From Candidatus Electrothrix yaqonensis (GTDB lineage Bacteria > Desulfobacterota > Desulfobulbia > Desulfobulbales > Desulfobulbaceae): a stretch of DNA of 32,000 bases. The DNA is taken from the NCBI GenBank assembly GCA_047651235.1, contig CP178758.1, positions 420,001 through 452,000 on the forward strand, written 5' to 3'. Shown piece by piece: positions 2,833 through 32,000 of this stretch; within the stretch, counting starts at the first letter, position 1; every line of letters begins with the position of its first letter. The position numbers and the translations under genes were made by a program. The notes below the pieces were generated by a model. That model ran no database searches. It was not told where the DNA came from and saw only the letters and a list, made by a program, of their open reading frames with translations.

Positions 2833-2865
2833 GGTGTGTTCCTTCAATAAATTCTGAACAGCCGC

Positions 2866-4236
2866 TTAGTTTTTCTTCCCCTGCGGTGTAGCACCACCCG
2901 GTGACCCCTGCGGCTTCTCCCCGAACGGCACTGCATTGACCTGAGTGCCGGGACGCAGCATCAGTAGGCCCTCGACAATCACCTTGTCATCGGGCGCAAG
3001 CCCTTTGGTCACCAGCCACTTATCCTCAATGGCCCGCTCAAGCACCAACGGGCGATATTCCGCCTTACTCTCCTTATTAACCACCAGGGCAAAGGGATCA
3101 CCCTTGGAATTGCGCTGCACACCCTGCTGCGGCACCAGGAGCGCCTGCTCCCGGATACCCTCCTGAATCACCGTGCGGACAAACATGCCCGGCAGGAGCA
3201 CTCCGTCCGGGTTGGGAAAAACCGCCCGCAGGGTGACAGAGCCGGTGCTCTGGTCAACCGTGACATCACTGAACTGCAGGGTACCGTCCTGCGGATAGGG
3301 TGTACCGTCCTCCAGCAAAAGCCTAACCTTGTTTTTTCCCGCCCCGTCTTCCTGAATACCGTTTTCCCGGAGGCGCAGCAGTTTGGCCGCAGCTTGGGGA
3401 ATATCCGCATAAATGGGATCCAGCTGCTGGATAATGGACAGCGGGGTCGGCTGATAAGCGGTCACCACCGCGCCTTCAGTTACGTTGGAGATACCTATGC
3501 GGCCGGAGATCGGGGCGGTGACCTTGGTGTAGCCGAGATTAATCTTTGCTGTTTTCACCGCCGCCTCTGCCTGCTGCACAGCAGCCTGGGCAGCGGCAAT
3601 TCCACTACGGCTGCTCTCCACCTGGGCCTGAGCTGCAGTGAGATCCGCCTCAGCCACAGCCGCCCCGGTTGCGGCCTGATCGCGCTGAGCTGCGGAAACA
3701 ATCTTCTGCTTAAACGATTGCTCATAGCGTTTGCTGTCTGCCTTGGCCAGATCCAGCTTGGCCTTAATCCGGCCGATATCAGCTTGGCTGGCCTTGAGCG
3801 CGGCTTTGGAACGATCAACAGATTTTCGGGCCGCAGCAAGGCTGGCTTCGGCATTATCTAATGCTGCCTGAAACGAGGACGGGTCAAGCTGATAGAGGAC
3901 ATCGCCCGCCTGGACATCCGCACCTTCCGTAAACAGACGCTCCTGAATAATACCGCTGACCTGGGGGCGGATCTCCGCAGTACGGAAGGCCGAGGTACGG
4001 CCGGGCAGTTCATCCGTGAGTACGACCTGCTGCGGCTGCATGACGACAAAGGACACTGCCGGGGCAGGCCGCTGCTGCGGTGCGCCCTGCTGCTGTTCTT
4101 TGGCCGAAAACAGACTGATCAGCTGTCCCATCCAGCCGGGCAGTCCCTTCTGATCACAGCCGGACAGAAAGAGGGGACCGGACAAGACGAAGAACAGAAG
4201 GCTCCAAGTGCGCCATGTGCGTAAGAAGATATACAT
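2866..4236 (-). CDS. Efflux RND-type periplasmic adaptor (membrane fusion protein, AcrA/MexA-like)
   Basis: Track ORF 2866..4296. Lipoprotein-type signal 'LFLSGC', a long Ala/Gln-rich alpha-hairpin, and 'YTKVTAPISGRIG...QQLDPIY' motifs typical of MFPs. I moved the start to ATG 4236 because GGAG lies 5 nt upstream and this removes the overlap with the tetR stop at 4268. Confidence 0.85.
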   Translation of the reverse strand: MYIFLRTWRTWSLLFFVLSGPLFLSGCDQKGLPGWMGQLISLFSAKEQQQGAPQQRPAPAVSFVVMQPQQVVLTDELPGRTSAFRTAEIRPQVSGIIQERLFTEGADVQAGDVLYQLDPSSFQAALDNAEASLAAARKSVDRSKAALKASQADIGRIKAKLDLAKADSKRYEQSFKQKIVSAAQRDQAATGAAVAEADLTAAQAQVESSRSGIAAAQAAVQQAEAAVKTAKINLGYTKVTAPISGRIGISNVTEGAVVTAYQPTPLSIIQQLDPIYADIPQAAAKLLRLRENGIQEDGAGKNKVRLLLEDGTPYPQDGTLQFSDVTVDQSTGSVTLRAVFPNPDGVLLPGMFVRTVIQEGIREQALLVPQQGVQRNSKGDPFALVVNKESKAEYRPLVLERAIEDKWLVTKGLAPDDKVIVEGLLMLRPGTQVNAVPFGEKPQGSPGGATPQGKKN

Positions 4237-4267
4237 AGTAACTCCAAGGAATTGTTCTTTGGCATTT

Positions 4268-4954
4268 TCAGGTAGCTGCGGAACATTCAGATTCAAGCAG
4301 TCCCTGAAAAAAAATATTCAGAATGATGTCCGGAGACTCGGGATAAGAATCCCGGCCTTCCAGCCAGTTGGAAAGAAAAGCATTGCACAGGCTGTCCAAA
4401 GCAACCGCTAGGTGATAGGGCTCGGCAATCCGACGGAATCTGCCGTTCTCCATGCCACTGGCAAAAACAACCGCAAGAGCCTTCTGCATCTGATAATGCC
4501 GCTCCCGCAGCTCGTTGTCTAGGCCCGCCTTGATATTAAAACTCGCCCCCCGCGTCTCAGCAAAATAGAGACGGATAAAGGAGACGTTGTGCATAAACAC
4601 CTGCCCCTTGACTTGCACGTAATTGCGCAGCTGGCCGATCTCGTCGTCTGTGGCCTCCAGAGCTGCGCTCAGAGCAACATGAAAACGCTCTGCCTGCTCG
4701 GTAATCAGGGCCTTGTATAGAGCCTCTTTATTTTTGAAAAACTTGTACAGCGTACCGACCGCAAACTCGGCCTGGTCGGCAATCTCCTGCATCGAGGCAT
4801 TATGATAGCCCTTTGCCGAAAAAAGCTGAATCGCTGCAGCAAGCATCTCCTGACGTTGTCGGCGTTTTTCGCGCTCCCGGCGGGAGGGTTTCCTATCCTG
4901 CATCAGAGATGCCTCTTGCTGCCGGTTCAGCATAGTTGCTTCCCGGCATAGCAT
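4268..4954 (-). CDS. TetR/AcrR family transcriptional regulator
   Basis: N-terminal HTH 'ASMQEIADQAEFAVGTLYKFFKNKEALY' is typical of TetR. It lies directly upstream of, and co-oriented with, the MFP gene. Alternative start at ATG 4933 (GGGAAG upstream). Confidence 0.85.
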   Translation of the reverse strand: MLCREATMLNRQQEASLMQDRKPSRREREKRRQRQEMLAAAIQLFSAKGYHNASMQEIADQAEFAVGTLYKFFKNKEALYKALITEQAERFHVALSAALEATDDEIGQLRNYVQVKGQVFMHNVSFIRLYFAETRGASFNIKAGLDNELRERHYQMQKALAVVFASGMENGRFRRIAEPYHLAVALDSLCNAFLSNWLEGRDSYPESPDIILNIFFQGLLESECSAAT

Positions 4955-5001
4955 GTTGCTTCATTATCCGGCTCATTTTCTGTTGATCGTATTCATTTTG
5001 T

Positions 5002-5015
5002 GAATTTAAATTCAT
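5002..5015. promoter_or_regulatory. Perfect 14-bp palindrome TGAATTTAAATTCA, candidate TetR operator
   Basis: Read directly from the sequence. It lies about 50-80 bp upstream of the tetR start. A third ATTCA half-site sits at 4992-4996 (ATTCA-N5-TGAAT-TTAA-ATTCA). TetR regulators typically bind such palindromes in their own promoter. Confidence 0.45.
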
Positions 5016-5280
5016 TGCATTGTAAAGCCATAAATAGGATTGTCAAACAGAAAAAAAACGACGGTTCCATAACGAGACAGAAGACACAGATAAAATATTA
5101 ATAATAAACAGTAAAATATGTAGCGGATAGTCCTCTGCTTTTTTTACCCCTCTCTCCTGAAACAAAATTCCTCTTTTTGTTTTCCTTGGATCATGATACA
5201 CCTGCCGAAAAGGGCGGGCGAAATACGGAGCTAAATACTGACCAGCAGCTACCCGCTATCTATTCCAGTAAAATTGAACG

Positions 5281-6528
5281 ATGAAACAGGCAGCAGCACA
5301 ACCTATTACAGAAAAAGAGCGAATACAGTCTATTGATGTTCTGCGCGGATTTGCCGTATTATGCATATTGGCCATAAATATCAGAGCATTATCAGGCCCT
5401 TGGGTGGCTTATTTCAATCCGGCCGCATATGGTGATTTATCAGGAATAAACTATTTAATCTGGCTAGTTACAGACCTTTTTTTCTATCACAAATTTTTAA
5501 TTACCTTTTCAATTCTCTTCGGCGCAGGAGTTATTCTTTTTACAGAAAGGCTGGAAAGCAGAGACAAACCTGTATTCAAAATATATTATCTGAGAAATTC
5601 AATCTTGTTACTTATGGGGATAGCGCATTACATTCTGATCTGGGATGGAGACATCCTTCATTGGTATGGCCTTTGCGCCTTTTTTCTTTACTGGCTCAGA
5701 AAGCTGCCTTCCAGATATTTACTCATAGCAGGAGCTGTTATTTTTTCTTTCCAATTTATTATCAGAACCTATTATTACTTTATTGTTATTGAATATCCTC
5801 CGAAAATATTCCAGGAGTGGATGCAATATAATTGGCACTCATCTCAGCAGACTATAAATGAAATTATAAATATTTATAAAAGCGGATGGATCGAGCAAAT
5901 AAATTACAGAATAAACGATTCTCTAGGATACTTTATTGGTCATGTCGTAAAAAAGGGAGAAATATTCGAGCCTCTTGGCGCTATGCTGATCGGAATGGTA
6001 CTCTTCAAGACATCGGTCATAAATGCGAGTAAATCAAAAATATTCTACAAAAGACTGCTTGTTAGTTCATTGATAATTGGGTTGCCGCCAACAGTAATCA
6101 GTGCATATATTATGTCACATTCAAACTTTGATGCGGTTGCCGGATTCTTTGTAGCTTTTCAATTTAATTTATTTGGTTCTCTATTTCTGAGTCTTGCATA
6201 TATAAGCATTATCATGCTGCTTTGTAAAAATCAGAAATTTACTTGGCTGACGACCAGATTGTCTTCGGTAGGACGCATGGCATTTACAAACTACATAATG
6301 CAGTCATTGATCTGCACGTGGATTTTTTACGGATTCGGATTGGGCTTATACGGCAGTGCAGAACGTTGGGAACAGATGATAGTGGTCCTGATAATATGGC
6401 TGCTGCAGATATGGAGCTCGTCAATATGGCTGAAATATTTTCGTTCCGGCCCACTGGAATGGTTATGGAGATCCTTGACATACTGGAAATTTCAGTCTAT
6501 CAGACGCAGAAGGCCTGACCGCAGCTGA
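5281..6528 (+). CDS. DUF418/YeiB-like polytopic membrane protein
   Basis: 415-aa ORF. The N-terminal 'IQSIDVLRGFAVLCILAINI' and multiple hydrophobic segments resemble the YeiB/DUF418 family. The gene is clearly AT-richer than its flanks. Confidence 0.65.
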   Translation: MKQAAAQPITEKERIQSIDVLRGFAVLCILAINIRALSGPWVAYFNPAAYGDLSGINYLIWLVTDLFFYHKFLITFSILFGAGVILFTERLESRDKPVFKIYYLRNSILLLMGIAHYILIWDGDILHWYGLCAFFLYWLRKLPSRYLLIAGAVIFSFQFIIRTYYYFIVIEYPPKIFQEWMQYNWHSSQQTINEIINIYKSGWIEQINYRINDSLGYFIGHVVKKGEIFEPLGAMLIGMVLFKTSVINASKSKIFYKRLLVSSLIIGLPPTVISAYIMSHSNFDAVAGFFVAFQFNLFGSLFLSLAYISIIMLLCKNQKFTWLTTRLSSVGRMAFTNYIMQSLICTWIFYGFGLGLYGSAERWEQMIVVLIIWLLQIWSSSIWLKYFRSGPLEWLWRSLTYWKFQSIRRRRPDRS

Positions 6529-7357: not shown

Positions 7358-8315
7358 AAGAGCGCGTACAACCCCGGCTGTCCGCCGGGAAATTCAGCGC
7401 TCAGAACTTTCCGAACGTAAGTTGTCGGAAAAATACGGCATCAGCAGAAGTACGGTCCGGAAATGGAAATACCGTGATACCGCCGACGATTTTTCGCACA
7501 GGCCGCATAATCTGCACGCGACGCTCACGGATCCGGAAGAAGCCGTGGTTGTTGAGCTGCGCAGAACGCTCCTTCTTCCGATTGACGATCTCCTTGTTGT
7601 TGTGCGTGAATTCATCTGTCCGCATATGTCGCGCTCCGCCCTTGACCGCTGCCTGCGGCGGCACGGAGTCTCAAATCTGAAAGAGCTGATCCCGGCGGAG
7701 GAAAACGAAGAGAACCGTCCGAAAACATTTAAAGATTACGAACCTGGTTTTGTGCATGCCGATATAAAATATCTCCCGCGGATGCCGGACGAAACGGAGC
7801 GGAAATATCTTTTTGTCGGCATCGACAGGGCCACCCGGTGGGTGTACATGGAGATCCGGGCTTCGAAAACTGCGGAATCCGCCCGCTCTTTTCTGAATAA
7901 TCTCATTGGGAAGGCCCCGTTCATGATCTCAAAAATTCTCACCGACAACGGGAAGGAGTTCACCGACCGTTTCTGCCCGTCCGGAGAGCGTGAACCGACC
8001 GGAAATCACGTATTTGATCGGAAATGCGGGGAGAACGGCATTGAGCACCGTCTGATAAAACCGCGCAGACCGCAGACAAACGGCATGGTCGAGCGCTTCA
8101 ACGGCAGAAGTAAAGAAGTTGTTCAGCAGACAAAGTTTGAATCGTCCCGTCAGCTTAAGGAAATACTGCTGCAGTATCTCCGTATTTACAATCACCATAT
8201 TCCGCAGAAAAATCCCGGTCATATCACGCCGGTTGAGGCTCTGAAAAACTGGCGGAAAACGCATCCCGATTTATTTAAAAAATTGGTGTACAATCAGTCG
8301 GGGCTTGACATCTAA
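7338..8315 (+). CDS. IS481-family DDE transposase
   Basis: 325-aa ORF with N-terminal HTH 'GISRSTVRKW' and DDE contexts 'HADIKY', 'LTDNGKEF' and 'TNGMVERFN'. I could not identify terminal inverted repeats by eye, so the element boundaries are unresolved. Confidence 0.85.
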   Translation: MNIALHKRARTTPAVRREIQRSELSERKLSEKYGISRSTVRKWKYRDTADDFSHRPHNLHATLTDPEEAVVVELRRTLLLPIDDLLVVVREFICPHMSRSALDRCLRRHGVSNLKELIPAEENEENRPKTFKDYEPGFVHADIKYLPRMPDETERKYLFVGIDRATRWVYMEIRASKTAESARSFLNNLIGKAPFMISKILTDNGKEFTDRFCPSGEREPTGNHVFDRKCGENGIEHRLIKPRRPQTNGMVERFNGRSKEVVQQTKFESSRQLKEILLQYLRIYNHHIPQKNPGHITPVEALKNWRKTHPDLFKKLVYNQSGLDI

Positions 8316-8354
8316 TCCATAATTTTTCCCCGTACCCCCCAGGCAAACCCCTGT

Positions 8355-8423
8355 TCAGGCTGATTTCCCTAACGTTCCGCACACCTCCCGCACCAGTGCA
8401 ACATCCGCGTCCATGATTTCGCA
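8355..8423 (-). pseudogene. Displaced fragment of a thrC 3' end (last 22 codons plus stop)
   Basis: The minus strand reads 'CEIMDADVALVREVCGTLGKSA*'. The tail of the intact thrC reads 'CEIMDADAALIREYVEKNALEG*', which is the same length. Nucleotides 8402-8423 match 8956-8977 at 21/22 positions. Similarity decays distally and ends abruptly upstream of the Cys codon. Confidence 0.7.
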
Positions 8424-23232: not shown

Positions 23233-23827
23233 ACCTCAAAAGCTCATAATAAGCTCCATGACGTGTTGTCCCCACAACAATATCAGGAGCAAATTATGAG
23301 TCGATTTAAAAAACTATCACATACAATTTGGCATTGCCAGTACCATATCGTCTGGGTTCCCAAGTATCGATTAAGAATACTTGAGGGTGAAGTCGGACAG
23401 GAGGTGTTCAATTGTACCTGCGCATTCAGCGAGCAGAAAAAGTGTGAAGTGATTGAGCTGAATGTTCAAAAAGATCATGTTCATATTATCGTGATGATTC
23501 CTCCGAAACTGTCGATTTCGGATTATATGGGCATCATTAAAGGCAGAACCGCGATTCGTGTATTCAACAAGTTTCGCAAATTGAAGAAAAAACCGTACTG
23601 GGGTAATCGTTTTTGGGCACGCGGCTATTGTGTCGATACTGTAGGTTTAGGCGCTGAGAAAATACGTCGCTACGTAAAGTATCAGGAAGAAAAAGAACGC
23701 CAAGCCGAACGTAACCAACTACGGTTATTCTAATTAAATCGGGGACAACACCTCGCCCCCTCTGGGGGCAAGAGGCATCCTTATCCCCTTTTAGGGGTAA
23801 ACCCAATACCACCCCCTTTGGGGGTGG
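23187..23827 (+). mobile_element. IS200-type (IS200/IS605 family, tnpA-only) insertion sequence; minimal extent defined by subterminal hairpins
   Basis: Left hairpins: CCACCCCCtctGGGGGTGG (23187-23205) and GTTCAACGGCtttGCCgGTTGAAC (23211-23234). Right hairpins: GCCCCCtctGGGGGC (23755-23769), a TTATCCC..GGGGTAA stem (~23781-23800), and CCACCCCCtttGGGGGTGG (23809-23827). An 11-bp perfect inverted repeat, GTGTTGTCCCC (23263-23273) / GGGGACAACAC (23741-23751), brackets tnpA. Confidence 0.8.
23296..23733 (+). CDS. tnpA: IS200/IS605-family Y1 (HUH) transposase TnpA
   Basis: 'WHCQYHIVWVPKYR', HUH motif 'KDHVHIIVMIPP', 'NRFWARGYCVDTVG', and the catalytic Tyr region 'IRRYVKYQEE'. Start set at ATG 23296 (AGGAG 7 nt upstream) rather than the track's 23263. 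Confidence 0.9.
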   Translation: MSRFKKLSHTIWHCQYHIVWVPKYRLRILEGEVGQEVFNCTCAFSEQKKCEVIELNVQKDHVHIIVMIPPKLSISDYMGIIKGRTAIRVFNKFRKLKKKPYWGNRFWARGYCVDTVGLGAEKIRRYVKYQEEKERQAERNQLRLF

Positions 23828-25011
23828 ATTATTTATGTGGTTTCCTTGCTGTCATAATGCTGACAGCCGCCAGCGGGGAAGCTCAGTTATTGGACAAGGT
23901 GTCGGTGCATGGCTTCGGCGGCTGGGTGTACGGAAAGACAGATAATGAAAATGAATTTTACGGAGATAAATATTACGGAGACTGGGATACTGACGAAACT
24001 GTAGAGAACTTTAACTTTTTTTTAAATATTCGTACTGAGATAACTGAAGACCTGACAGTATATCTGCAGCCCGGTTTTATCAGTACCGATGAAGAGAGGG
24101 AGACCAAAATAGATTACGCCTTTGTTGAATGGTATCTTTCTGATTTGGTGACTTATCGTGCCGGTAAGATCAGAGTGCCGTTCATGCTGTTTAATGAAAT
24201 TTATGGCGTCGGAACAGTCCGGCCTTTTTTGTTTCTCCCCCAAGGAATATACAATCCCCGTATCCAGATACCAGAATATTATCAAGGGGCCGGGATGAGA
24301 GGGGATTTTTTTGACAATTATTCATGTTGCTGTAACTGGCAGTTATCCTATGACATCTTCGGAGGATCTACATTTCTGTATGAGAGCAACGACGTATATA
24401 ACGTGACCGACATTGAGCGGTATTCAATTAAAGGCATGCTGGGCGGCAGACTGGTACTTCATCCCCCGGTCGATAGACTGCAGCTCAGTCTTTCTTCCTA
24501 TACTGGAGAACAGGAAGCACGCCGAAATGATGGGGGAGTGATCACAGAATTTGAATTCGGTACAGCATTATTTATAGGAGGATCAATAGAATATCTTAAC
24601 GACAAATGGAACCTCCGGAGTGAATATATGGTAGCTGAGCGTGACGAAAATCAAATCGGCGGGGTTGGGGACGCAGAGTACACAAGTTGGTATGCTGAAG
24701 CAGCGTACCGACTGACGGAACACTGGCAGCTGGCAGCCCGTTACGAGGAGATTGAGAATCCGGACAATAATCCCTATCCCTGTGAGGACAAAAGACTGTC
24801 CTCTGATCATACGCTCAAAAAAAGCACGGAGTGGACTATAGGGCTGAACTATTGGGTTTCCCCGAACTTGGTGGTGAAATGTTCGACAACCTTTATTCGG
24901 GACAACGAGAATGCCCGGCCGACCAGCTGGATTAATATAAGAAATCCGCAGGAATATCCTTTTGAAGAAGAAACCGTACTGACACTGATTGGTGTACAGT
25001 TCAGTTTTTGA
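23818..25011 (+). CDS. Outer-membrane beta-barrel porin (phosphate-selective porin O/P-like); 5' end abuts or overlaps the IS200 right end
   Basis: 397-aa ORF with alternating beta-strand pattern. 'IDYAFVEWYLSDLVTYRAGKIRVPFML' resembles the Porin_O_P core, and the C-terminal 'IGVQFSF' ends in Phe, as in OMP signatures. The N-terminus 'GVDYLCGFLAVIMLTAASGEAQ' looks like the hydrophobic core of a signal peptide lacking its charged N-region. The only available start (TTG 23818 or GTG 23824) lies inside the IS hairpin. Confidence 0.6.
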   Translation: MGVDYLCGFLAVIMLTAASGEAQLLDKVSVHGFGGWVYGKTDNENEFYGDKYYGDWDTDETVENFNFFLNIRTEITEDLTVYLQPGFISTDEERETKIDYAFVEWYLSDLVTYRAGKIRVPFMLFNEIYGVGTVRPFLFLPQGIYNPRIQIPEYYQGAGMRGDFFDNYSCCCNWQLSYDIFGGSTFLYESNDVYNVTDIERYSIKGMLGGRLVLHPPVDRLQLSLSSYTGEQEARRNDGGVITEFEFGTALFIGGSIEYLNDKWNLRSEYMVAERDENQIGGVGDAEYTSWYAEAAYRLTEHWQLAARYEEIENPDNNPYPCEDKRLSSDHTLKKSTEWTIGLNYWVSPNLVVKCSTTFIRDNENARPTSWINIRNPQEYPFEEETVLTLIGVQFSF

Positions 25012-25554: not shown

Positions 25555-26760
25555 GTGGTACGATATCGAAGGCTCCGTGCAGTCCTGACCGGGTTGTGCT
25601 GTATCCTGCTGCTGCCTGCACCCGGTACAGCGGAAGATACAGCAAAAAAGCAGCAACATCCGCCATATATTCGGCTGGCACTTACCGAGCCTGTAACCTC
25701 TCTTGATCCTGCTGATAAAGACTGTGATCGGGAGATCATCCCCCTGCTGTTTGCCGGTTTAACCGAAATCAATACTAACGCTGGCGTAAACGAAAACTGC
25801 TGATTCTGGAAAAAAATCCGTTCTATTTTGATGCAGAAAAGGTACAGATTCCGGAAATCCGTTACATGATGCTGCCCTCTTCAGAAATTGCACTGGAAAT
25901 GTACAAACATAATCAGCTTGATTCTATACCTTTCTTCCATAAAAAGCAGTGGGTTGCCATCAGAAAAGTTCCTGGCTTGGCAAAGCAGTTACCCGATAAG
26001 CCCACCAAACAGGGAAGATATTATCTTGGGTTTGATCACAGTCGTCCTCCATTTGATGATGCTGATGTCCGTCGGGCAATTGCAACAGCTGTTGACAAAC
26101 AGTTTATCTTGAACAAAGCAGTGGGAATCATTGGTGATGTCTCTGATGCATTCATCAACCGCTCTGCTGTCGAATCTGATTCTGATACGAAGAGCTGCCC
26201 ACCTAAATTGGATACGGAACGGGCAAGGAGAATCCTTGCCTTTGCCAAGAAGAGGCTCTATCCTGAGGGAGAAGATTTTCCAGAAATCTCTATCAGCGGC
26301 TCATCTGTTGATGTTGAGATTGTACAGCTGATTCAGAAAGTGCTGAAAAAAAATCTCGGCATTACGGTAGTACAGAAAAAAAAAGTTGAGGACTTTAGCA
26401 CTCCCTCACACCTTTTTGTGGTCAAAAAACAGGCAGAATATGCCCATCCTCTTTATTTTCTGGCCGAATTTATTAATACTGATGGAAACTTACATTGGAA
26501 CAGCCAGAAGTATATAGAATATAAAGAACTTTTTAACCGTGCGTTAAAAGAAAAGGATTCTTCTCAGCAGAGAATATTTTATGAGGAGGCGGAACAGATA
26601 CTTTGTAAAGAGTACGTCATTATCCCTCTTTTTTTTTCAAAATGTTGCATTCTTAAAGAAACCGTGGATCCGAGGTGTGTATTCGCATTCGCGGAGCAGT
26701 GTACAGCCGATACATATGTGGTCGTTCGGGGAGTAAGGAACGGTTTCATCAGCTTGGTTC
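25555..26760 (+). pseudogene. Family-5 ABC substrate-binding protein (OppA/DppA-like) with an internal deletion and frameshift
   Basis: ORF 25555..25803 (GTG start) gives a signal peptide plus 'IRLALTEPVTSLDPADKD..IIPLLFAGLTEI'. Homology resumes in another frame at ~25795 with 'LILEKNPFYFDAEKVQIPEIRYMMLPSSEIALEMYKHNQLD...YLGFDHSRPPFDDADVRRAIATAVDK...YEEAEQILCKEYVIIPLFF'. About 170 aa of the expected middle are missing. The 3' ORF runs on to 26909, over the next gene's start. Confidence 0.7.
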
Positions 26761-26763
26761 GGT

Positions 26764-27471
26764 ATGAAGAAAAAGATTCCCGCAAAATACCGTATATTAC
26801 TTATTACAGGTTGTATTTTGGTACTGCTGATCGGCACTCTTCAGTTTTTCAGGAAAGATGTGCTGTATATCGGTGTAGTCGCTCCGTTAACCGGAGAGTA
26901 TGCATCTAACGGCGAAGAAATGCTCAGAGGAATCAAACTTTATATTGAGCAAATGAACAAAAGCGGTGAACTGCATGGCAAAAGGATAGAATTAACAACA
27001 AAAGATGATCAGAATGATCCGCAGGATGCCAAGCATATCGCGCACGATCTTTCCTTAAATAATAAGGTGCTGCTGGTCCTTGGTCATTATTCCAGTGCCG
27101 CCTGCGGGGCAGCTGGCAATCAGTATAAAAAATTCGGCCTACCGGCAATTACAGCTTCCGCCACAGCAGAAACGATAACAGACGAAAATAGCTGGTATTT
27201 CAGATCAAATGTATCGAGCAGCCTGCAGACTGAACTCCTTGCAACCTATCTTAATAAAATTCTTCATAAGAAAAAAGTACTACTGATTGCTGATAAAGGA
27301 AATTTGTGGGCCGAATCAGTTTACAGCTCCTTTAAGAATGCATGTGAAGACCTGAGTTTTCCGATCTCAAAACACGAAGAGTGGTATTTTGATTCCAGGA
27401 AGAACGCAACAGAAGTTGAGGAACGACTTGACGACATAATAAATGATATATGGACAGATTGGAAAGAATGA
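26764..27471 (+). CDS. N-terminal fragment of a split gene: signal/anchor plus first lobe of a LIVBP-type (Peripla_BP_6, type I PBP) domain
   Basis: 'MKKKIPAKYRILLITGCILVLLIG' anchor, then 'IGVVAPLTGEYASNGEEMLRGIKLYIEQMN..GELHGKRIELTTKDDQNDPQDA...VLLVLGHYSSAACGAAGNQYKKFGLPAITASAT'. It ends at a TGA created by the 25-bp duplication. Confidence 0.75.
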   Translation: MKKKIPAKYRILLITGCILVLLIGTLQFFRKDVLYIGVVAPLTGEYASNGEEMLRGIKLYIEQMNKSGELHGKRIELTTKDDQNDPQDAKHIAHDLSLNNKVLLVLGHYSSAACGAAGNQYKKFGLPAITASATAETITDENSWYFRSNVSSSLQTELLATYLNKILHKKKVLLIADKGNLWAESVYSSFKNACEDLSFPISKHEEWYFDSRKNATEVEERLDDIINDIWTDWKE

Positions 27472-27492
27472 TATATGGACAGATTGGAAAGA
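27443..27492 (+). repeat. Perfect 25-bp tandem duplication (ATGATATATGGACAGATTGGAAAGA x2) causing a frameshift
   Basis: 27443-27467 and 27468-27492 are identical. Because 25 is not a multiple of 3, the duplication shifts the frame. Deleting one copy fuses 26764..27471 and 27443..29812 in frame, reading '...INDIWTDWKDEADSVAVFIAAG...'. Confidence 0.95.
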
Positions 27493-29812
27493 CGAAGCAG
27501 ATTCTGTAGCTGTCTTTATCGCCGCCGGTTCATCATACGGTGCCGATATCGCGACATCTTTGCGATATAAAGAGAAAAAGTTCACTGTTATCGGAACAGA
27601 TGCTTTCAGCACGCCCAATTTTATAGAGCAGCTTAATAGAGACCCTGTGGAAGGTATTACGCAGGGATATTATTCAGACGGGATATATACAGTTTCGCCC
27701 GTAAACATCGAAGGTTCCGGTCTGGAAGCTCAGAAGTTCAATGCACTGTACAAAAAAAAATATAACACAGAACCGTCATGGGTTGCGACCGGCTATTATC
27801 AAGCAGCAAAATTTGCGCTCGAAGCGATCAGTACAACCGAGCTTCAGGGAAACCTTAAAGATGACCGCAGCAACATTCGAGATGCTCTCCAAAAAGCCAT
27901 CAAAGACTCTTCTGATGAATATGCCCGGTTCATCACGGTCAGCCGATATAATAAGCACCGGCTTAAACCGGTATGGAAACAGCTGCAGCGTCTGCTCGAC
28001 GTAGAAAAATCCCGACTTAGTGAAGATTTGCTGAAAGACCGAGTTTTCAAGATCGGAGAGCAGTATTTTGCCAGTACAGATCTCGTGTATACCGGCATCG
28101 CAATCAACAGTATTGACGATGTGGACATGGCGGCCGGTACATTTACTATGGATTTCTACCTCTGGTTCAACTCCATAAAAAAGTTCGATCCTTCACAAAT
28201 CGAGTTTTCCAATGCTGTCACGCCCATCCGTTTTGCACCAGAAGATGATGACGTTCCTGCTGCTTCGAAAAAAAAGGAGGGATTGTTTATCAGGCCTGAA
28301 GCCGAAGAAGAAACTCCGGGCCCGAAGATGCAGGAAGCCGTACATGTTGATACTGTGGAGATACCCGGAGAGCCTGAGGCCAGTTCTTACCTTTATCGGG
28401 TCAAAGGGAAATTCAGGGCTGATTTTCTCCCCGGAGAACGGCGATTCGGCAGACGTATGCTGGGCACAAGTTTTCGCCATGCGGAATGGACGCGCAACTA
28501 CCTGATCTATATTGCCGATACCGGGGGAATGACCCCCATAGAAGAAGGAGGAAAGGCACTGACCAGACACCTGAGGGACAAGGAGGTGCTGGATACCGAT
28601 TCCGGCTGGACTATTGATGACACCTTGTTCTTTCAGGATAGTGAGGCCCAGGAACCACTCACAGATATCAGGTATCTCGGAGACCGGCAGCTCGACCCCT
28701 ATTCCCGATTTAATGCTTTAATCTGGATTAAAGATTATGAGTTTACCCTGCGGGGGCTTATCTCGTCAATATATGCGCGGCCCGAAGCCAGATACGCTCG
28801 AATGCTCACAATGATCTACGGGGGACTCCTGCTTCTTTTATGGTATCTCGAAAAACGAAAAACAGATGATCAGGCAATATATTTATTTAAAGTACTCTGG
28901 TTTCTTCAGGCCGTTATCGGAGTTACCGCATTGCTGGCTGTGCAGATAAGCGTGATGCAGTTTTTTGAGGATAAAGGATTCGACAGGCAGTATCTGGACC
29001 GCGTTATGCGGATTTTTGATGTGCTTTGGTGGATTATCCCGGCTGTATTGATCAATCTGGCCTTGGAAAATTTTATCTGGCGTCCTGTCGAAATCCGTAC
29101 CGAACGCCGTATTCCGTACAATGCCCGGCTTACTGTAAGCTTTCTGGTCTACCTTCTGGCATTTTTCGGTATTCTCTCGTTTGTCTACGATCAGACTCTG
29201 GCTGGCCTGCTGGCAGCATCAGGCGTTCTTGCCGGAGTTTTCGGCCTATTAAAACTCTTTGACTTTTCAAATGTTTTCTCAGGAATCATAATTAACATTG
29301 AGCGTCCTTTCCGGATCGGCGATTGGGTAAAAATCGGTGATCATGAAGGCAAGGTGATGGATATGACCTGGGGAACAACCAGAATTTTAACAAGAAGCAG
29401 GGCGTCACTTGCCATTCCGAATAAGCAGGTTACAGACGCTGCCGTGGAAAATTACAGTTCCCCTGATAACCGTTACGGCCTTTCTCTGACTTTGGAAACT
29501 ATACCTGTCAGTGATCCTGAGGCGGTCCGCAGACTTCTATTGCAGGCCGCACTTGCTGTCAAAGAAGTACTGCGCGACCCCATGCCGTTTATTGAGTTTA
29601 AAGGCCAGGGGGATTCATCGGCGATTTTTAAGGTCTGTTTTCAGGTACGGGACTACGAAAAAAAATACAGGTATCTCGATGCGGTCTGGGAAAGCGTCTG
29701 GCTCCACTTAAACAACAAAGGACTTGAGCTGGCAACACCGTGCAGGTTCCTCTATCATTTTGAAGGGCAGGAACCGGAGTGGGAACAGCCGGAAGAACTT
29801 GCCCGCAGGTAA
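27443..29812 (+). CDS. C-terminal fragment of the split gene: second PBP lobe, Cys-loop-receptor-like beta-sandwich, 5 TM segments and an MscS-family channel domain
   Basis: The first 8 codons are out-of-frame duplicate sequence. Second PBP lobe: 'FTVIGTDAFS...WVATGYYQAAKFALEAI'. pLGIC-ECD-like segment at ~28040-28777. TM helices and MscS core at ~28796-29752: 'LAGLLAASGVLAGVFG...FSGIIINIERPFRIGDWVKIGDHEGKVMDMTWGTTRI...IPNKQV'. Confidence 0.75.
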   Translation: MIYGQIGKNDIWTDWKDEADSVAVFIAAGSSYGADIATSLRYKEKKFTVIGTDAFSTPNFIEQLNRDPVEGITQGYYSDGIYTVSPVNIEGSGLEAQKFNALYKKKYNTEPSWVATGYYQAAKFALEAISTTELQGNLKDDRSNIRDALQKAIKDSSDEYARFITVSRYNKHRLKPVWKQLQRLLDVEKSRLSEDLLKDRVFKIGEQYFASTDLVYTGIAINSIDDVDMAAGTFTMDFYLWFNSIKKFDPSQIEFSNAVTPIRFAPEDDDVPAASKKKEGLFIRPEAEEETPGPKMQEAVHVDTVEIPGEPEASSYLYRVKGKFRADFLPGERRFGRRMLGTSFRHAEWTRNYLIYIADTGGMTPIEEGGKALTRHLRDKEVLDTDSGWTIDDTLFFQDSEAQEPLTDIRYLGDRQLDPYSRFNALIWIKDYEFTLRGLISSIYARPEARYARMLTMIYGGLLLLLWYLEKRKTDDQAIYLFKVLWFLQAVIGVTALLAVQISVMQFFEDKGFDRQYLDRVMRIFDVLWWIIPAVLINLALENFIWRPVEIRTERRIPYNARLTVSFLVYLLAFFGILSFVYDQTLAGLLAASGVLAGVFGLLKLFDFSNVFSGIIINIERPFRIGDWVKIGDHEGKVMDMTWGTTRILTRSRASLAIPNKQVTDAAVENYSSPDNRYGLSLTLETIPVSDPEAVRRLLLQAALAVKEVLRDPMPFIEFKGQGDSSAIFKVCFQVRDYEKKYRYLDAVWESVWLHLNNKGLELATPCRFLYHFEGQEPEWEQPEELARR

Positions 29813-29924
29813 AGCTCTAACTGCTGCAGTTTTATTCTGACGCAACGATCAACGATGCTTCCAGTATCAGGCATTTGTTTTTGAGTTGTGAGTTTCAAAC
29901 TCTAATTCACTTCACAATGAACAA

Positions 29925-32000
29925 ATGCTGAGCAATATCCGTCAGCAATGCGAAAATCTGTTCAGACAGAGCGCCGCCTTTGCCTACAGGCAGAAATACT
30001 GGGTTGTTGCCGTGATGCTTCTGCTCACGGCCGGGCTGGCTACCCAGTTAGGCAGGTTGGAGATCGATACCCGTGATGAGAGTTTCTTTCATAAAAACGA
30101 TCCGGCCCTGATCGCCTATAATGACTTCAAAAAACAGTTCGGCCAGGATGAATTTTTTCTCATCGCCCTCCAGCCTGCCCAGGGATTAGATACGGCCTTT
30201 TTCAACACCCTGTACCGTCTGCACCGGGAGCTGGAAGAGTCTGTCCCCTATATCGACAAGATCAGCAGTCTGGTCAACGGCAGGATCGTCCGGGGCGATG
30301 AAGACACCCTCTATGTGGAAGAACTTTTCCCGCAACCGCCGCAGAACAAGGCGGAAACAGCCCGGATTAAGGAGCTGATCGACCAGTATCCCCTGTATGA
30401 AAATCTTCTGATTTCACCGGATCGGTCAACGGTATCGATCCTTATTAAGGCGAAGGCCCTGGTCGTCAAAGGGGGGCAGCCAGAAGACGTGCTGGCAGGC
30501 TTTGAGCAGGAAGAGCCGGAGGAACACGCTGAGCGGTATTTGAGCAATGCGGAAAGCACGGAGATGACCGAGGCTATTGAGCAGGTGGTCGCAACCTATC
30601 AGAGTCCGACGCTCAAGGTTTTTTTCACCGGTATCCCGGCTGTGGTCACAGCCCTGCAGAAAGGGGTGAAGCGTGACCTGTTCGTGATCCTGCCTTTTTC
30701 CGTCCTGCTGAGCATCTTTTTTTTCGCCCTGCTCTACAGACGTACCTCCGGGGTGGTTTATCCTCTGCTGATCGTGCTGCTTTCGCTGGTCGCCACGTTC
30801 GGTTTTGTGGGCATGCTCAGAATTCCGGCTACTCTTCCGGTCAGCCAGATTTTACCCGCTTTTCTCCTGGTTGTCGGGATCGCCGACGCTGTCCACATCC
30901 TGACTATTTTTTACCGTAACTTCAGCCGCTGCGGCGATAAACAGCAGGCCATCCTTGATGCCATGGCCCTTGCCGGTCTGCCTGTGCTCATGACCTCGGT
31001 GACCACGGCCTGCGGTCTGTTCTCCTTTCTCTGGGCCGACATGGCCCCGGTGGCTCAGCTCGGCTGGGTTGCCCCGGTCGGAGTGTTCTTTGCCCTGCTG
31101 TACACGGTTCTCCTGCTGCCCGCCTTTATCGCTCTTTTCCCCCTCAAACAGGGAAAAAAAGGACAGGGGCTTTCGGAAAATGCACTATCTGATCGGCTGT
31201 TCCACGGGATCGCCAGGGTCACGACCCGGCATCCTGCTGCCGTAACCGTTCTGTTCAGTTGCTTCATGCTTGTTTCCCTGTACGGCATTTTCAATCTGCG
31301 TTTTTACCATAATGCAGCGACTTGGTTCCCGGAGGATTCTCCTGCCCGGCAGGCGATTGAGCTGCTGGACAGAGTCAACGGCGGTTGCAGCACCCTGGAA
31401 GGAGTCATTGATACCGGCAAAGAGAACGGCCTGTATGATCCTGATCTGCTCCGCCGTCTGGATCAGGCGGTGACGGATATCAGCCGTCTTGAGGTGGCCG
31501 GTATCAGGGCCGGGAAGGTATGGGCCATTTCAGATGTGCTCAAAGAGACCAACCGGGCTCTGCATGGCAATCAGGATGCCGCCTATACCCTGCCGGACTC
31601 CCGCGAACTCACGGCCCAGGAGCTGCTCCTGTTTGAAGCTGGCGGCAGTAATGATCTGCAGGACTTTACGGACAGCAGATACCGGACAGCACGATTCTCC
31701 ATTATAGGTCCTGCCGAGGATTCCTTCCTCTATGTCGAGTATACGGACAGGGTGCAGCAGTATCTCAGCAGGCAGTTTCCCGATGCCTCAGTAACCTTGA
31801 CCGGTAAGGTTTACCTCTTTGCGCAGCTCGTCAGCCGGGCGATCACCACTATGGCCAAAAGCTACAGCATTTCCCTAGCCGTCATTACTCTGCTGATGAT
31901 CGCTATGGTGGGCGGGGTTCGGATCGGTCTGTTGAGTATGCTCGCCAATGTGGCCCCGATACTCTACGTCCTGGGCCTGATGGGGATGAACGACATCCCC
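29925..32000 (+). CDS. RND-superfamily exporter (COG1033/MMPL/HpnN-like); 3' end runs off the right edge (>=692 aa)
   Basis: My own translation from ATG 29925 stays open through 32000, which explains its absence from the track. 'NDPALIAYNDFKKQFGQDEFFLIAL', an SSD-like TM bundle 'LPAFLLVVGIADAVHILTIFY...LPVLMTSVTTACGLFSFLW', and a second periplasmic loop followed by further TM segments. Confidence 0.75.
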   Translation, partial: MLSNIRQQCENLFRQSAAFAYRQKYWVVAVMLLLTAGLATQLGRLEIDTRDESFFHKNDPALIAYNDFKKQFGQDEFFLIALQPAQGLDTAFFNTLYRLHRELEESVPYIDKISSLVNGRIVRGDEDTLYVEELFPQPPQNKAETARIKELIDQYPLYENLLISPDRSTVSILIKAKALVVKGGQPEDVLAGFEQEEPEEHAERYLSNAESTEMTEAIEQVVATYQSPTLKVFFTGIPAVVTALQKGVKRDLFVILPFSVLLSIFFFALLYRRTSGVVYPLLIVLLSLVATFGFVGMLRIPATLPVSQILPAFLLVVGIADAVHILTIFYRNFSRCGDKQQAILDAMALAGLPVLMTSVTTACGLFSFLWADMAPVAQLGWVAPVGVFFALLYTVLLLPAFIALFPLKQGKKGQGLSENALSDRLFHGIARVTTRHPAAVTVLFSCFMLVSLYGIFNLRFYHNAATWFPEDSPARQAIELLDRVNGGCSTLEGVIDTGKENGLYDPDLLRRLDQAVTDISRLEVAGIRAGKVWAISDVLKETNRALHGNQDAAYTLPDSRELTAQELLLFEAGGSNDLQDFTDSRYRTARFSIIGPAEDSFLYVEYTDRVQQYLSRQFPDASVTLTGKVYLFAQLVSRAITTMAKSYSISLAVITLLMIAMVGGVRIGLLSMLANVAPILYVLGLMGMNDIP

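Follow-up and report, generated by a model that had tools for sequence, protein, structure and literature searches.

A gene of Candidatus Electrothrix yaqonensis joining a periplasmic-binding domain and a pLGIC-type extracellular domain to an MscS-type pore

Introduction

What kind of protein carries a periplasmic sensor domain at one end, an MscS pore at the other and, between the two, about 250 residues without annotation? The question is raised by a forward-strand gene of Candidatus Electrothrix yaqonensis (assembly GCA_047651235.1, contig CP178758.1). It lies within positions 420,001–452,000, the 32,000-nucleotide stretch that was analysed and is called the window here. An initial annotation, made from the letters alone, read the gene as a fusion of three parts: a type I periplasmic-binding protein (PBP) domain, a segment resembling the extracellular domain (ECD) that ligand-gated ion channels of the pentameric class (pLGICs) possess, and an MscS pore. 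Profile searches, structure prediction with a Foldseek search and a search for intact orthologues were proposed there as checks.

The gene almost certainly encodes a chimeric channel subunit, built from an N-terminal anchor, a PBP domain, a pLGIC-ECD homologue, a linker helix, four transmembrane (TM) helices, an MscS pore helix and a cytoplasmic cage. The best overall explanation, in which this identity is combined with the mechanism and the state of the copy described below, is given a probability of roughly 0.7.

Reading frame and domain composition

As assembled, the gene is divided into two overlapping open reading frames (ORFs) of the same strand, 26764–27471 (235 aa) and 27443–29812 (789 aa). 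The division is produced by a 25-bp unit, AATGATATATGGACAGATTGGAAAG, that is present as two exact tandem copies. With the second copy the frame is shifted, and a TGA stop arises at 27469–27471, inside the PBP domain at aa 235. When one copy is deleted, an open frame of 3024 nt and 1007 codons with zero internal stops results, and the single gene of this length anticipated by the initial annotation is thereby recovered. The motif DDIINxIWTDW, encoded by the 25-bp region, occurs once in relatives, and a single copy is therefore taken as the ancestral state. A public protein, P0001, is 100% identical; its source is the metagenome-assembled genome (MAG) of a cable bacterium, Candidatus Electrothrix sp. 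YB6, where it is listed with 721 aa as a 'mechanosensitive ion channel domain-containing protein' whose start is an internal codon. Residue numbers below refer to the repaired frame.

The N-terminal hydrophobic segment is preceded by a KKKxxxKxR stretch (5 K/R among the first 10 residues), and the N-terminus is predicted to be cytoplasmic. The repaired frame matches PF13458 (Peripla_BP_6, E 1.9e-33), PF01094 (ANF_receptor, 3.1e-13), PF00924 (MS_channel_2nd, E 9.8e-21, 74 bits where the cut-off is 20.2) and PF21082 (MS_channel_3rd, the cage, 23.8 bits against a cut-off of 21). Both the PF13458 and the PF00924 checks are thus positive, and the proposed order of anchor, PBP, middle segment, five TM helices and MscS TM3/beta-domain agrees with the Pfam matches and with the AlphaFold model. 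Nearest among solved structures to the PBP domain are binding proteins of the branched-chain amino-acid type (4gnr, 7e-23). These matches point to a PBP of the LIVBP type.

The best NCBIfam matches are MscK for aa 804–981 (5e-21) and a LIV-binding protein for aa 27–194, both far under the equivalog cut-offs (MscK 74 bits, 991 needed; MscS 32–46 bits, 321–500 needed). Judged by these scores, the protein is MscS-like, yet it is no orthologue of any named E. coli channel. PF00027 (cNMP_binding, the cyclic-nucleotide-binding domain) is not matched, and the protein ends 27 residues past the alpha-beta domain.

The middle domain and the pLGIC extracellular domain

The middle ~250 residues have zero matches in Pfam at E ≤ 10 and none in NCBIfam. 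Homology search with the protein returned two groups. The first consists of ~22 proteins that are colinear over the whole length, many of them with an additional C-terminal cNMP_binding domain. The second consists of ~57 proteins, mostly of 700–790 aa and some longer and multi-domain, that match only the first 54–73% of the query; several carry PF02932, the pLGIC TM region. Residues 400–670 alone align along their length with the ECDs of the second group (PBP-containing proteins of ~750 aa), with E down to 1e-24 as computed for a database of 1e9 sequences. Second-group proteins give weak PF02931/PF02932 matches, and residues 471–644 of one of them, P0029, match GABA-A gamma2, GluCl, GlyR and a GLIC chimera at ~1e-7.

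Two profiles carry the comparison further. Profile A2, from the ECD and transmembrane domain (TMD) regions of twelve PBP-pLGICs, matches GLIC residues 20–314 of 317 at ~1e-13. Profile A1 was built from the middle domains of MscS-fused proteins only (16 sequences). Compared by hhalign, A1 and A2 match with a probability of 100% and E 8.4e-63 over 212 columns. In the A2-GLIC alignment the GLIC motifs TGIYLIECYSLDDKAETFKVNAFLSLSW, FRRYPFDSQTLHIYL and LTGWDIES are paired in the same register. The motifs that the initial annotation had quoted are genuine GLIC sequence, in register with the bridging PBP-pLGIC family.

The AlphaFold2 model of the middle domain is nearly all beta, with a mean predicted local distance difference test (pLDDT) score of 77 and a predicted TM-score (pTM) of 0.72. 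In a Foldseek search of the PDB it matches DeCLIC, the acetylcholine-binding protein (AChBP) of Lymnaea and the GLIC ECD in isolation (3igq), with E ~1e-8 and a probability of 1.00. The PDB matches with E ≤ 1e-3 number 1100, and the 50 best listed are all pLGIC ECDs or AChBPs. The fold is in agreement with a pLGIC-type domain.

Direct comparisons count against the assignment. PF02931 (Neur_chan_LBD), the third profile proposed as a check, is not matched at E ≤ 10 by the query or by any of 16 family ECDs (0 of 16). Searched against the PDB sequences, profile A1 finds no solved pLGIC; a chance match to NMD3 has E 0.86. Against the GLIC ECD alone, hhalign gives A1 a probability of 39% and E 3e-4, in the right register and not significant alone. 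Such results would suit an unrelated beta-sandwich whose likeness to pLGICs is due to chance or convergence. That alternative is effectively refuted and is left with next to no probability: the 212-column match (E 8e-63) is to ECDs of proteins that continue into a pLGIC TMD, no other fold is present among the 50 best of the 1100 structural matches, and the motif register is common with GLIC. The homology of the middle domain with the pLGIC ECD is real but remote, and is visible only via the intermediate family and the fold. For this reason the domain is without annotation. The resemblance of the ~240-aa segment to a pLGIC ECD, claimed at the outset, is supported by this indirect route.

Junction and pore

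Lengthening the MscS-group alignment to take in the TM region and the MscS core (A3) leaves its match to the pLGIC profile as it was, with the end still at position 219 of 337, the pre-M1 boundary. Because pLGIC homology ends at pre-M1, the exchange of pores is clean at the ECD/TMD junction. A local pLGIC_TMD hidden Markov model (HMM) has zero matches among the MscS-fused proteins.

The model of aa 405–1000 (pLDDT 74) consists of the last ECD strand, a short helix, four long helices, a kinked helix and the MscS beta and alpha-beta domains. One half matches MscK, YnaI, MscS, MSL1 and YbiO in the PDB (Foldseek E 1e-15 to 1e-10 for MscK, YnaI, MscS and MSL1), and the other half matches DeCLIC and alpha7. 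No solved PDB chain spans both halves. The initial annotation had the final strand running straight into a TM helix; this detail was wrong, and ~4 residues and a helix (aa 654–663) intervene before the TM helix at aa 665–691. Homology with pLGICs stops immediately ahead of the short helix. The a-b and c-d loops of the TM region are rich in K/R, which fits the cytoplasmic side. By the positive-inside rule, the topology would be consistent, with a periplasmic ECD and with the a-b and c-d loops and the cage in the cytoplasm.

In pLGICs the Pro-loop touches the M2-M3 loop. Its motif YPFDxQ is conserved at ≥80% across 48 PBP-pLGICs and is absent from 22 MscS-fused proteins, which have DFLPxxxxFxxH at this site and no conserved Pro; the query has FLPGERRFGRRM. 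Loss of YPFD fits a changed membrane partner. On the alignments, one PBP+ECD sensor module sits on two unrelated pores, that of pLGICs and that of MscS.

The family of MscS-fused proteins

An exhaustive HMMER search with A3 covered 1.84 billion cluster representatives (clusters at 50% identity). The family comprises at least 150 such clusters. All 150 listed have E ≤ 1e-142, and each aligns with the ECD part of the profile as well as with its MscS part, in most cases without a break. Architecture was assigned in 144 new representatives with local HMMs from the family alignments. PBP-ECD-4TM-MscS-cNMP is the commonest class (77 of 144), followed by PBP-ECD-4TM-MscS (57); in the remaining 10 no LIVBP-type PBP was detected. 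Several of these 10 begin mid-domain and are fragment-like. Two of them, P0154 and P0159, start with Met and a signal peptide, after which the first ECD strand follows at once; they are complete ECD-MscS-cNMP proteins. P0192 has a different PBP, of the sugar type by eye.

The best 78 loci, one genome per species, match from the ECD through the MscS core, mostly over nearly the whole 596-residue query. They contain 79 family ORFs that are intact and contig-internal, 60 of them with a cNMP domain; the intact orthologues sought by the initial annotation are thus numerous, and they mostly stand alone. Members are spread over many phyla. They occur in Beggiatoaceae (Thioploca, Marithrix, Parabeggiatoa, Halobeggiatoa; frequently as paralogues in tandem), in Desulfonema, Desulfococcaceae and Desulfamplus, in Magnetococcales, in Rhodospirillales including Magnetovibrio, and in Leptospiraceae, Cloacimonetes, Anaerolineae, Oceanospirillum and others. 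The Gly/Ala pattern of the pore helix and the motif ERPFRIGDW are nearly invariant across the family. Gene neighbourhood is not conserved in the 78 loci: the commonest neighbouring family recurs in just 4 of them, and the protein is for this reason regarded as a self-contained system. When 70 ECDs are placed in a neighbour-joining tree, the MscS-fused proteins form one split, with bootstrap support of 90/200 (45%). A single pore swap is plausible on this tree.

Several loci deserve separate record. Tandem same-strand pairs of paralogues are present at L001–L006, L009, L024, L045 and L065 (Beggiatoaceae and one Rhodospirillaceae MAG). The upstream copy appears to be devoid of cNMP; in most pairs, however, this copy is truncated at the edge of the locus. 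L044, from a Magnetococcales MAG, is the only clear two-ORF split in the 78 loci; PBP-ECD (712 aa) and 4TM-MscS-cNMP (476 aa) are encoded separately at 2481–6062 (+), split at the ECD/TM junction and not, as in the window, within the PBP. The upstream tandem copy of L002 may be a second case. In L040, from a Leptospiraceae MAG, a gene for a 301-aa ECD + pLGIC-TMD protein (7488–8393, +) lies 1.3 kb downstream of a PBP-ECD-MscS-cNMP gene, so that both pore types, with related ECDs, stand side by side. In L025, L054 and L058 (Desulfamplus MAGs), members without cNMP have directly after them a further ORF, of ~640 aa, which the cNMP HMM recognises and which may supply the same function in trans. 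P0056 (878 aa, ENA metagenome) is a PBP-pLGIC with apparently M1–M3 only, in which PF00027 (aa 742–829, 2.7e-18) replaces M4; the cNMP domain thus occurs also on the sister family with the pLGIC pore.

Features of the locus

Positions of the gene and its parts are collected in Table 1. The acidic insertion in an ECD loop is restricted to the Electrothrix-like subgroup. It is longer in the closest relatives (P0002, P0003, P0005) and absent in most members.

Table 1. Features of the channel gene, in window coordinates; residue numbers are those of the repaired frame.
Feature	Position	Strand	Residues	Remarks
Whole channel gene	26764..29812	+		1007 codons once one 25-bp copy is deleted
N-terminal hydrophobic anchor or uncleaved signal	26788..26850	+	9-29	Hydropathy 2.49
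Type I PBP domain (LIVBP-like; Peripla_BP_6 / ANF_receptor)	26866..27895	+	35-369	Pfam; interrupted by frameshift
Two exact tandem copies of the 25-bp unit	27442..27491	+		27442-27466 / 27467-27491
PBP-ECD linker	27896..28042	+	370-418	Domain calls and model; helix at aa 407-415
pLGIC-type ECD beta-sandwich	28043..28735	+	419-649	Profile and AlphaFold/Foldseek
ECD beta1-beta2 region	28082-28174	+		Within ECD
Acidic insertion in ECD loop	28250..28324	+	488-512	Low confidence, pLDDT < 50
ECD Pro-loop equivalent FLPGERRFGRRMLGTSFRH	28424-28480	+		Within ECD
ECD GW motif	28598-28621	+		Within ECD
Last ECD strand	from 28700	+		Within ECD
Short helix bridging ECD and first TM helix	28748..28777	+	654-663	Model
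Four TM helices	28781..29185	+	665-691, 698-728, 733-771, 777-799	Upstream of pore helix; unrelated to pLGIC M1-M4
MscS pore helix TM3a/TM3b, kinked	29195..29302	+	803-823 / 826-838	Model
MscS cytoplasmic beta-domain (PF00924) and alpha-beta domain (PF21082)	29264..29728	+	826-890 and 908-980	Pfam

Upstream of the gene lies the remnant of a family-5 solute-binding-protein (SBP) gene, in two pieces on the forward strand: 25555–25803 (82 aa, with a signal-like start) and 25866–26909 (347 aa). The 347-aa piece matches only SBP_bac_5 profile positions 158–325, and the tail of its ORF and the start of the channel gene have 145 bp in common. An IS200-type Y1 transposase gene (PF01797, 6e-38) is located at 23263–23733 (+), ~3 kb upstream of the channel gene, and is adjoined by a phosphate-selective-porin-like gene at 23818–25011. 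Downstream, an ORF of >700 codons (~29890–32000, +) starts ~80 bp past the channel gene and runs off the end of the window; by eye it resembles a membrane transporter of the RND/MMPL type.

State of the copy in the window

The window copy is probably, though by no means surely, a recent pseudogene. No full-length product is expected from it unless the duplication is artefactual or reverts. Two properties of this copy tell against the overall explanation. The first is the frameshift itself. The second is substitution at A821L, N825D and R862G, positions invariant in the other 14 aligned members. The pore helix reads GLLKLFDFSN (29243–29272) vs GLA[IV]QxNISN in relatives, and the beta-domain TWGTTR (29366–29383) vs TWRTTR. 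The query departs from the family at 11 of 93 conserved columns, 7 of the 11 being in the pore helix. A compensated frameshift behind GLLKLFDFSN was considered and rejected; the other two frames hold stops and no family motif.

That the 25-bp duplication is a real mutation and the copy recently inactivated is compatible with the explanation given for the family, and is held with slightly more confidence than doubt. An exact 25-bp tandem copy is untypical of homopolymer-type sequencing error, and the stop that it creates lies inside the PBP. Decay is also seen nearby, in the SBP gene remnant (~120 profile positions gone) and the IS200-type transposase. Three residues invariant in 14 relatives are replaced in the pore helix and beta-domain, and the downstream piece would have neither signal nor anchor to export its ~430 periplasmic residues. 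Set against this, the 789-codon downstream frame is fully open, the 11 of 93 departures are inside the family range of 4–35, and the public annotation is that of a 721-aa protein and not of a pseudogene. Any inactivation would be recent, because the 2.4-kb downstream frame is still open.

Alternatively, and with clearly lower probability, the duplication would be an artefact of assembly or consensus, and an intact 1007-codon gene would be present in the organism. The source record is a MAG, the frame is open on both sides, and deletion of exactly one unit restores a protein colinear with relatives; among the loci of 78 other species, L044 alone has a comparable two-ORF split. However, exact 25-bp tandem copies within unique coding sequence are rarely invented by assemblers, and the neighbouring genes also look damaged. 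Metagenome searches gave 0 matches for the intact or the duplicated allele and, for close orthologues, only a 36%-identical fragment. Recent inactivation is retained as the preferred account of this copy.

Proposed mechanism

The family protein is read, with a slight balance in favour, as a ligand-modulated channel of the MscS type. Subunits would assemble through the MscS core. A periplasmic small molecule would bind and thereby close the PBP or, in members without PBP, would bind the ECD itself. Movement would travel through the ECD layer, then through the linker helix, and so reach the peripheral TM helices; their displacement would alter the open probability of the MscS TM3 gate or its tension threshold. 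In most members cNMP would be a second, cytoplasmic input. The output would be a flux of ions or solutes, as a signal or as a release valve. Precedents exist in MscK and MscM, where rings in the periplasm dilate or disassemble in gating, and in bacterial channels gated by cyclic nucleotides (bCNG channels), which join MscS with cNMP domains (PMC13591265).

Symmetry, coupling and physiology each provide objections to such a mechanism. Every solved MscS-like channel is, to our knowledge, heptameric, and the pLGIC ECD is known only from five-fold rings; on a seven-fold MscS core the ECDs may form no ring at all. The isolated GLIC ECD (3igq) reportedly crystallised as a hexamer; the entry has a chain F, which is consistent with six copies. 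If correct, the hexamer would suggest some plasticity of the ECD ring. The route of coupling from ECD to pore, if any, differs from that of pLGICs, since the Pro-loop motif is lost. The bCNG channels gave E. coli no protection from hypo-osmotic shock when overexpressed (PMC13591265, a review of September 2026), and MscS-derived proteins of this kind may not be simple valves.

A periplasmic collar is the first alternative for the PBP-ECD part. The protein would then be a tension-gated MscS-like channel in which this part sets threshold, hysteresis or localisation, with no gating by ligand. The MscS core is indeed canonical, the ECD-pore coupling motif YPFD is lost, and the rings of MscK and MscM tune gating without classical ligand-binding domains (PMC13591265). 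The collar is nevertheless unlikely: a bona fide ligand-binding PBP is kept in 134 of the 144 new representatives, the PBP type is exchanged in P0192, the PBP pattern is typical of sensors and not of spacers, and in the sister family it is this PBP-ECD module that drives a ligand-gated pore.

Less probable again is a non-conducting receptor, in which the MscS scaffold would serve cNMP-linked or protein-protein signalling from the cytoplasmic cage. YbdG shows no tension-evoked currents and overexpressed bCNG channels are unprotective (PMC13591265), the literature discusses MSL10 in non-conducting roles, and cNMP domains are present on most family members. The near-invariant Gly/Ala pattern of the pore helix and ERPFRIGDW motif argue instead for a maintained pore.

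With ligand modulation of a conducting pore as the preferred reading, a broader proposal is put forward tentatively, at rather less than even odds. The pLGIC ECD would act as an allosteric transducer that can be moved from one channel to another and depends neither on five-fold symmetry nor on a four-helix pore. Seven PBP-ECD modules would ring an MscS-type pore and, on binding of a periplasmic ligand, gate or tune it, with cytoplasmic cNMP acting too in most members. If true, this would be a third architectural class of ligand-gated channel, made from parts of two others, and its use would lie in the chemical sensing of large sediment bacteria of filamentous, gliding and magnetotactic habit.

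Novelty and significance

Full-text searches of the literature, which is incompletely searchable, returned no description of a pLGIC-ECD/MscS fusion or of a PBP-fused MscS. Neither is mentioned in PMC549065, in the 2016 survey of Pro-loop receptors or in PMC13591265. The remark of the initial annotation that PBP-fused MscS homologues are described found no confirmation in these searches. The architecture is regarded as new, assembled from two known channel superfamilies, and the earlier impression that a pLGIC-type ECD on an MscS pore was unreported holds for the searchable literature. In Pfam terms it is Peripla_BP_6 and MS_channel (with or without cNMP_binding), separated by an unexplained gap of ~250 residues. 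The ~230-aa domain is invisible to Pfam, and as a result hundreds of family proteins bear no annotation beyond 'ABC transporter substrate-binding protein' or 'mechanosensitive ion channel', which a new profile would put right.

For pLGICs the family is a natural experiment in modularity, the same PBP-ECD module being placed on an unrelated pore whose known relatives are heptamers. In engineered GLIC-GlyR chimeras the ECD is said to be able to drive a foreign pLGIC pore. For MscS-like channels the proposal, if true, adds periplasmic ligand sensing and, in members with cNMP, dual periplasmic and cytoplasmic control. Distribution in Beggiatoaceae (as tandem paralogues), Desulfonema, cable bacteria, magnetotactic bacteria and Leptospiraceae hints at environmental sensing in motile sediment bacteria. 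Non-osmotic roles of MscS-like channels are described as poorly explored (PMC13591265).

Comparison with known systems

PBP-I-fused pLGICs were described in 2004 (ART-LGIC; Tasneem, Iyer, Jakobsson & Aravind, PMC549065) and are represented here by P0023–P0080, e.g. P0029. They have the same N-terminal anchor and the same LIVBP-type PBP as the query, an ECD homologous over its whole length, and ~30% identity over the first ~650 residues. Taxa shared with the MscS-fused family are Desulfobacterales, Beggiatoaceae and magnetotactic bacteria. They differ in the pore, with M1–M4 in place of four TM helices, MscS TM3 and cage, and in keeping the YPFDxQ Pro-loop that the MscS-fused family has lost.

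GLIC, ELIC and DeCLIC, together with AChBP, have the same ECD beta-sandwich, with the beta1-beta2, Pro-loop-region and GW motifs in register. DeCLIC likewise has an extra N-terminal periplasmic domain. Unlike GLIC, ELIC and DeCLIC, the query has neither the four-helix TMD nor the Pfam ligand-binding-domain signature, and its expected partner is a seven-fold MscS core.

Channels of the bCNG type (2010, cited in PMC13591265) likewise have an MscS core followed by cNMP_binding, as do 77 of the 144 new representatives and 60 of the 79 intact ORFs of the present family. As described, they are without the periplasmic PBP-ECD part; the window copy, for its part, is without cNMP.

For the C-terminal half, MscK and MscM are matched best in NCBIfam and by Foldseek, and they are a precedent for a periplasmic ring in gating. 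Both have 11 TM helices and, in the periplasm, domains made of helical bundles, whereas the query has a PBP and a pLGIC-type beta-sandwich with 5 TM helices after them. YnaI likewise has four peripheral helices and a pore helix (TM-score by target length 0.5–0.58), without periplasmic sensor domains.

Ionotropic glutamate receptors and GluR0 offer a functional analogy only, in that a PBP-type clamshell and a pore are joined in one polypeptide (PMC549065). These receptors have an unrelated pore (tetrameric, K-channel-like) and a PBP that is wired in another way, and they contain no pLGIC ECD.

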